From: Eledone cirrhosa | Lineage: Eukaryota | DNA: 47,844 nt | Direction: 5' to 3' | NCBI GenBank assembly: GCA_964016885.1 | Contig: CAXHJY010000921.1 | Span: forward strand, 1 to 47,844 | Shown: piece after piece, positions 38,067 through 38,563 of the stretch | Layout of the letters: each line of letters opens with the position of its first letter | Position numbering within the stretch: position 1 is the stretch's first letter | Translations under genes and position numbers: made by a program | The notes under the pieces: generated by a model | Told to the model about the DNA's origin: nothing | The model's input: the letters and a program-made list of their open reading frames with translations, nothing else | The model's database searches: none

Positions 38067-38563
38067 CATATGTAGATGTACATTTTTGACTTAATTGTTT
38101 AAGCGTCAGTCATACAAAAGTGAGTTACAAACGAAAACGAAATTTAATTTCGTTTCGTTATTTGTTTTTATCGTCTCCGCTGAACCGGTGCGTACTCACA
38201 CTCTATGCAAATTAGTCTGCCCACTACTAATTTTCATAGAAAAAGCATATAACGATATGTGCTTTTACAATTCTCCAGAGGGGCCGGTAGATAGGTAAAT
38301 ATTGCTGATGAGTTGTAACAACAACGAAACTAGTTCAATATTCCTTGTCTGGCTTTCTGGACAATAGAGGGAAGGTGTTCCCCCGAAAACCAGTATGACT
38401 CTAAAAACCGGTTTGTCTGTGTGTTTACATACAGAATAGCTGGGTGCTCACAGTAAAGCAACCAGTGAAAGACTTGTTACACCTACATATGTATACGTGT
38501 GTGTATTCATATACACACTAGTATTTCAGTATGCATATGTAGATGTACATTTTTGACTTAATT
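38067..38563 (+). mobile_element. Retrozyme-like element: 467-bp unit + 30-bp terminal redundancy, one hammerhead
   Basis: CATATGTAGATGTACATTTTTGACTTAATT at 38067-38096 and 38534-38563; HHR 38298-38342; no credible ORF. Confidence 0.75.
38298..38342 (+). ncRNA. Minimal type I hammerhead
   Basis: AATATTG-CTGATGA-GTTGT AACA ACAAC-GAAAC-TA-GTT-CAATATT; palindromic ACTAGT. Confidence 0.9.

Follow-up and report, generated by a model that had tools for sequence, protein, structure and literature searches.

Two-armed insertions of a 467-nt retrozyme family in Eledone cirrhosa with two fixed ends and a probable Penelope-type writer

The window analyzed here, a stretch of 47,844 nt of Eledone cirrhosa DNA (contig CAXHJY010000921.1, forward strand), contains a copy of a 467-nt repeat that is a young but ordinary, lopsided member of an abundant protein-free repeat family. 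Insertions of this family consist of two head-to-head arms, with their 3' ends outward, in AT-repeat DNA. They have probably been written by a Penelope-type reverse transcriptase/endonuclease, priming at two fixed internal sites of an RNA that was likely either circular or an uncut multi-unit transcript. By sequence criteria the 467-nt unit is a non-LTR retrozyme.

The copy in the window carries an exact 30-nt direct repeat (38067-38096 and 38534-38563, both on the plus strand) with a period of 467 nt and 0 nt of extension backward. It is flanked by (TA)n target tracts on the left (37936-38059) and on the right (38564-38581), and the longest stop-free stretch within it is 67 codons. The terminal repeat, the TA flanks and the lack of an ORF had all been described in an earlier note on this DNA and are confirmed. 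Having no ORF, and hence no reverse transcriptase with a GIY-YIG domain, the element is not an autonomous Penelope-like element. It comprises one unit and the initial 30 nt of the next (38067-38563, plus strand), and its 3' end is a fixed site at unit position 30, here called site A; the second copy of the 30-nt repeat forms this outer end, and the first forms the inner, 5'-truncated end of the arm. To the left, overlapping this A arm by 2 nt, the 9 nt at 38060-38068 (minus strand) are the reverse complement of unit positions 97-105, and arms ending at the other fixed site, B, open elsewhere with identical letters. We infer, the stub being short, that 38060-38563 is a two-armed insertion made of a 497-nt A arm and a B stub of about 9 nt, and not a lone monomer; B-arm stubs of comparable size are present at L036, L037, L041, L068, L070, L305 and L325.

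A "tail" of 70-75 nt (38097-38171, plus strand) separates the fixed site A (38096 or 38101) from the fixed site B (38171), and folding predicts a hairpin in it at about 38130-38164. The tail is followed by an octamer motif (38205-38212, plus strand) that is retained in 84 of the 92 insertions covering it and is also present in a sister family, and which we take to be a putative promoter element of snRNA type. Folded as a circle, the unit reaches -141.5 kcal/mol, compared with -97.2 +/- 5.6 for 40 shuffles (z = -7.9); the minus strand folds almost equally well (-130 kcal/mol), and therefore the fold energy indicates structure, not circularity.

The type I hammerhead motif (38298-38342, plus strand) has all core bases, with 7, 5 and 2 bp in helices I, II and III, and a GUU triplet with the predicted cut between 38335 and 38336. 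Helix III sits on the palindrome ACUAGU, whose duplex is predicted at -8.0 kcal/mol; hammerheads with a short palindromic helix III are described as being active when dimeric (PMC4209133). The match to Rfam HH9 (E = 3.1e-8, 38.6 bits) is below the Rfam cut-off of 52, and the Rfam scan at the gathering cut-off gave 0 matches. MicroRNA and snoRNA matches in the scan were far below their cut-offs and were dismissed. The "perfect" central hammerhead claimed earlier is thus upheld in its core and its GUU site after 38335, and weakened by the score and by the 2-bp helix III. The self-cleavage expected of a non-LTR retrozyme is accordingly a prediction from the motif. Among ten distinct hammerhead motifs of the 467-nt and sister families, 93.6% of cells pair and 6 of 14 pairs are changed on both sides, in a sample spanning about three lineages only and so few independent events. 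A GUC triplet is found in other subfamilies (177 of 760 motif occurrences at sampled loci, overlapping loci being counted repeatedly).

The 3.0-Gb genome has 5,217 exact 29-nt ribozyme cores, against 0 in the control, and about 2,100 insertions of the 467-nt family. The best copies are 97-99% identical to that in the window and subfamilies range down to 86%. Each unit has a type I hammerhead, and the units are short, non-coding, arranged head to tail in tandem and dispersed, which supports the earlier assignment to the non-LTR retrozymes; multimeric copies, for which the same note suggested a search, do exist. The layout of LTR retrozymes, with type III ribozymes in LTRs and a short target-site duplication, is absent, as here the topology is type I, the units are in tandem and the flanks are (TA)n. 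Scars of RNA editing were not found within arrays (A>G 46 vs. T>C 41, p 0.52); between insertions the comparison gave 32 vs. 18 (p 0.035), yet 23 vs. 15 when distinct sites were counted (p 0.19). Within arrays there is an excess of G>A (77 vs. 45, p 0.008, one of five tests). Pieces of the unit also occur at low depth in contigs of two other organisms, one across a tandem junction and one beside Penelope-like ORF sequence.

The outer ends of the insertions are fixed and the inner ends are free. Genome-wide, unit position 105 followed by TA (site B) occurs 2,173 times and site A 2,061 times (position 30 followed by TA 1,010 times, positions 33-35 1,051 times), whereas ends at the ribozyme cut followed by TA occur 0 times; the permuted copies that the earlier note had proposed to look for are therefore not what the outer ends display. 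Among 200 ends on C1:1-122 Mb, 65 outward-facing pairs were found within 20 kb, and 64 of these are A+B, one is A+A and none is B+B; another A+A case is L337. In a sample selected by the ribozyme only, taken from the first 100 places of the ribozyme-core search, every one of the 28 insertions possesses an A or B end; of their 46 arms, 43 terminate at one of these sites and three elsewhere (hand count). At 90 B-anchored loci, the parser found an opposite arm in 61, a stub in 11 and neither in 13, while 5 run off the stretch; a fully visible opposite arm ends at A in 49 of 53. Similarly, the opposite arm is fully visible at 44 of 60 A-anchored loci, ending at B in 40, at A in one and elsewhere in three, and 13 of the 60 are without an opposite arm of over 22 nt. 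The two arms of the same insertion show a median difference of 0.4% and are among each other's closest tenth in 29 of 30 cases; judging from this similarity, both arms nearly always appear to derive from one source. Lengths of A arms vary from 53 to 3,786 nt with a median of 473, in a set from which a duplicate and a mis-parsed locus, as well as arms whose outer ends were odd, had been removed. Targets other than (TA)n also occur, namely (ATC)n for one insertion (L061:7211-7773) and (ATT)n for L064. At L315, L328 and L299, A arms directly abut the ends of other repeat families, one of them with a hammerhead-like core, and these may be further hybrids.

The footprint described for Penelope elements combines (TA)n targets with a one-ended tail and a 5'-truncated copy in inverted orientation (PMC8557442, PMC3846280). 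In the present insertions the 3' ends are fixed and one of them bears a tail, 5' truncation is variable, the target is an AT-rich microsatellite, and an inverted 5'-truncated copy is placed head to head, reduced in the window copy to just the 9-nt stub; the Penelope-type mobilisation suggested earlier gains support from this footprint. The Poseidon protein has been reported to cut and extend both strands in vitro, with two internal RNA start sites bounding the tail, and insertion of the tested element did not need ribozyme cleavage (PMC11167929).

The genome has about 10,600 GIY-YIG candidates. Two autonomous Penelope families, each with a cysteine motif ahead of a C-terminal GIY-YIG domain, share with the retrozyme the pattern of short and long ends, the L201 family with 10 of 34 at its short end and 16 of 34 at its long end (26 of 34 together), and the L207 family with 5 and 7 of 12, overlapping loci being counted twice in both. 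The L201 ORF has an RVT_1 match under the cut-off and a GIY-YIG match over it, and in L201, L203 and L204 the C-terminal GIY-YIG domain is preceded by a CX2-5CxxC motif as defined in PMC8557442. On these features the L201 and L207 families appear to be of Neptune/Nematis type, the two clades not being told apart. The L218 insertion combines, head to head, a B arm of the retrozyme and a 2.4-kb L207-family arm whose short end lies in (TA)n; each arm resembles its nearest copies at 98-99%, and there is no Penelope ORF on the far side. In L303 and L338 the partner of the A arm is instead a sister-retrozyme arm, which terminates at its B-like end. L218 is the only clean retrozyme-Penelope hybrid, L035 and L128 being ambiguous and weaker. 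Out of the 10,600 or so candidates, 47 GIY-YIG loci and 19 relatives of the L218 partner were compared and yielded no autonomous element sharing the unit sequence, and a ribozyme scan of 17 of the 47 loci found no autonomous element with a hammerhead. The lack of an autonomous parent among these loci, the single clean hybrid, the A+A pairs, the shortness of the 9-nt stub, the heterogeneity of many arrays and the cleavage-independent insertion of the tested Poseidon element all count against the explanation that we prefer.

As to the template, 180 of 241 arms continue for over 10 nt beyond the first cut site, mostly without a scar, and therefore the usual template would be a circle or an uncut multimer and not a cut linear monomer. 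We lean towards a single-unit circle as the template of many insertions, and both kinds of template are probably in use. Among 13 arrays picked as uniform, 7 are wholly identical, and five of these are 3-4 letters from any other of 633 units compared, in a comparison that sampled about a tenth of the family and may have missed a uniform source array. Such uniform, privately variant arrays point towards a circle; smoothing by gene conversion or in the assembly could also produce such uniformity. Heterogeneity is seen in six long arrays, and higher-order periods in some of them; the ten-unit arm of L080 (G000:C3:354508000-354517000) repeats exactly with a higher-order period of 4 units. A comparison of 60 two-armed insertions made up of at least four pieces found variants common to both arms at the same outer-end rank in six (L012, L074, L080, L120, L164 and L296) and at other ranks in seven. 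In L080 and L120 two separate variants each are common to the outermost unit of both arms, although some of these sites recur across arrays. Ordered variants of this kind favour multimers in some insertions, as a single monomer circle does not give them.

In its fullest form, which we advance tentatively and at slightly less than even confidence, the preferred reading is that a dimer of reverse transcriptases on one ribozyme-made circle starts at two sites 70-75 nt apart, one for each (TA)n cut end, with both enzymes running round the circle. The A+B rule would then be set by the enzyme, as hybrids between families also obey it, and the helper would be the Neptune/Nematis-type family found joined in L218. 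In the preferred explanation as such, which we hold to be likely, tandem units would be transcribed, perhaps from an internal promoter bearing the octamer, and the RNA would slowly cleave itself as a double hammerhead and be ligated to a circle. Both strands of (TA)n would be cleaved, cDNA would be primed internally at A and B, one from each side of the break, and the two cDNAs would be joined head to head via microhomology. In the window copy, the A and B cDNAs would have been 497 nt and about 9 nt long.

It is possible, if in our judgement somewhat improbable, that the Penelope mechanism holds and the template is always an uncut linear multi-unit transcript, with long arrays coming from long sources and later local duplication and the ribozyme being irrelevant to insertion. 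The same-rank variants in the six insertions named above and the 4-unit and longer periods inside arms agree with this, as does the weak cleavage predicted from the GUU triplet and the 2-bp helix III, and the main substrate in vitro was unprocessed RNA (PMC11167929). Against it stand the wholly identical arrays with their private variants and the expectation that a purely linear lineage would shorten and diversify, and inner ends are not piled up at the guessed transcript start near 360 (355-370: 11 seen, 8.9 expected).

A ribozyme-cut linear monomer as template, with arrays arising via template jumps at the cut, is unlikely. In one of nine windows, 260-300, inner ends are in mild excess (29 seen vs. 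20.3 expected, uncorrected p 0.04); there is also a cluster of unit variants at 281-300, and one internal deletion begins at 278. Nevertheless, the cut itself is without excess (268-275: 3 seen, 3.9 expected) and most arms pass it. The window copy crosses the cut as well, and a cut linear monomer therefore cannot be its template. A larger excess of inner ends at 55-85 (35 vs. 16.2) coincides with a palindromic hairpin and is in part an artefact of the alignment.

The earlier note had read the window copy as the product of an arbitrary start on a 467-nt circle, the enzyme going once round plus 30 nt and leaving permuted monomers with short terminal overlaps. The exact overlap, the mid-placed ribozyme and the passage across the cut are in keeping with that reading, which is nonetheless very unlikely, because copying starts at two fixed sites, the majority of insertions are two-armed, and there is no preference for lengths slightly above one unit (3 of 101 A arms in 468-520). 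The 30-nt repeat is 497 minus 467 because the start is fixed at site A and the stop is variable; given the range of A-arm lengths, 497 nt is ordinary and the overlap a chance stop. It is thus likely to be the mere stopping point of one arm and no proof of a circle, an uncut dimer giving the same product. The central ribozyme, taken before to imply a permuted start, is explained by site A lying 228 nt beyond the cut. The fixed A and B ends refute permuted starts and not the circle as template; the window copy alone gives no indication whether a circle or an uncut multimer made it. Finally, a DNA-level element (a foldback or MITE-like transposon, or a satellite) with the 30-mer as target-site duplication is scarcely credible: two-armed insertions do resemble long inverted repeats, but their two ends lie 70-75 nt apart in the unit, their inner ends are not fixed and their arms are of unequal length. 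In addition, ribozyme covariation is seen across families, and the 30-mer belongs to every unit junction, which rules out the duplication that the earlier note had named as its own refutation.

Several other repeats surround the copy in the window. A separate insertion directly to its left (37519-37935, plus strand) is a 3' terminal repeat of the autonomous Neptune/Nematis-type L201 family, 96-97% identical to both L201 terminal repeats and ending at the family's long end; Penelope-type ends seem to nest in one another's (TA)n tracts. To the right, 38582-38835 is a high-copy repeat with a hammerhead-like core at about 38744, matching 16 of 372 sampled loci, and a second copy of it opens the window; 39200-39510 is another repeat ending in (TA)n (20 of 372 sampled loci). 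Sister-retrozyme hammerhead-like motifs with a changed G8 position form an inverted pair at 17032 (minus) and 17129 (plus), probably another two-armed insertion. The inverted pair at 19883 (minus) and 19980 (plus) is of a third hammerhead type, in which helix II is long and the palindrome of helix III is a different one; this type is also found at L206 and L212. A large direct-plus-inverted repeat structure at 21366-30815 (2 kb at 93%, 378 nt at 99.7%) surrounds a weak reverse transcriptase-like match at 26777-27415 and is possibly another Penelope-type insertion. Open frames interrupted by (TA)n at 40716-41530 (minus strand) gave 0 Pfam matches and, as we presume, resemble the C-terminal part of a LINE reverse transcriptase.

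The return of retrozymes to the genome, by way of a circle and a Penelope enzyme, is proposed and not shown in the literature covered. The 467-nt family supplies exact start sites, a strict two-arm pairing rule, a named candidate helper and a young substrate, and with these the questions of helper and circle become testable in the existing in vitro Penelope assay. The search of the open literature, most of it at the level of listed records, turned up no report of two-armed retrozyme insertions with paired fixed ends or of retrozyme-Penelope hybrids.

The closest known systems are the metazoan non-LTR retrozymes (Cervera and de la Pena 2020, PMC7229834), which likewise have a non-coding AT-rich tandem unit with one type I hammerhead, occur as thousands of dispersed monomers to multimers, lack LTR, PBS and ORF, and fold strongly as circles. 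The 467-nt unit is slightly over the 150-450 bp quoted there and is known here from sequence alone, and its two-armed layout with two fixed ends is not described for metazoan retrozymes in the portions of that paper covered. Copying of retrozyme circles by Penelope enzymes is proposed in the same paper, and Li, Clavereau and Pollet 2026 (10.64898/2026.07.22.740005) report that retrozymes co-occur with Penelope elements and propose that they use their enzymes. In the latter work the link is made through co-occurrence and terminal-repeat homology, with arrays arising from local amplification, whereas here it is made through the insertion footprint and the hybrids; for the 467-nt unit, no homologous autonomous terminal repeat was found among the 47 and 19 loci compared. 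Newt satellite 2 and axolotl HHR_Amex1 (PMC7229834, PMC4209133, PMC2220036), likened here by description, also have a weak palindromic helix III, there working as a double hammerhead. An internal snRNA-type promoter is reported for the newt repeat, whereas the candidate promoter here is one conserved octamer only.

With regard to the writing enzyme, the insertions are like those of EN+ Penelope elements of Neptune/Nematis type and of Poseidon PAc (PMC8557442, PMC11167929, PMC3846280) in their head-to-head 5'-truncated copies, one-ended tail, AT-rich or (TA)n targets and two internal start sites. They differ from these in having no ORF, in a tail of 70-75 nt compared with 30-40 nt, and in that both arms may hold many whole units. 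The pairing of A with B is strict in the 467-nt family, whereas PAc in vitro is described as having no start-site difference between strands (PMC11167929).
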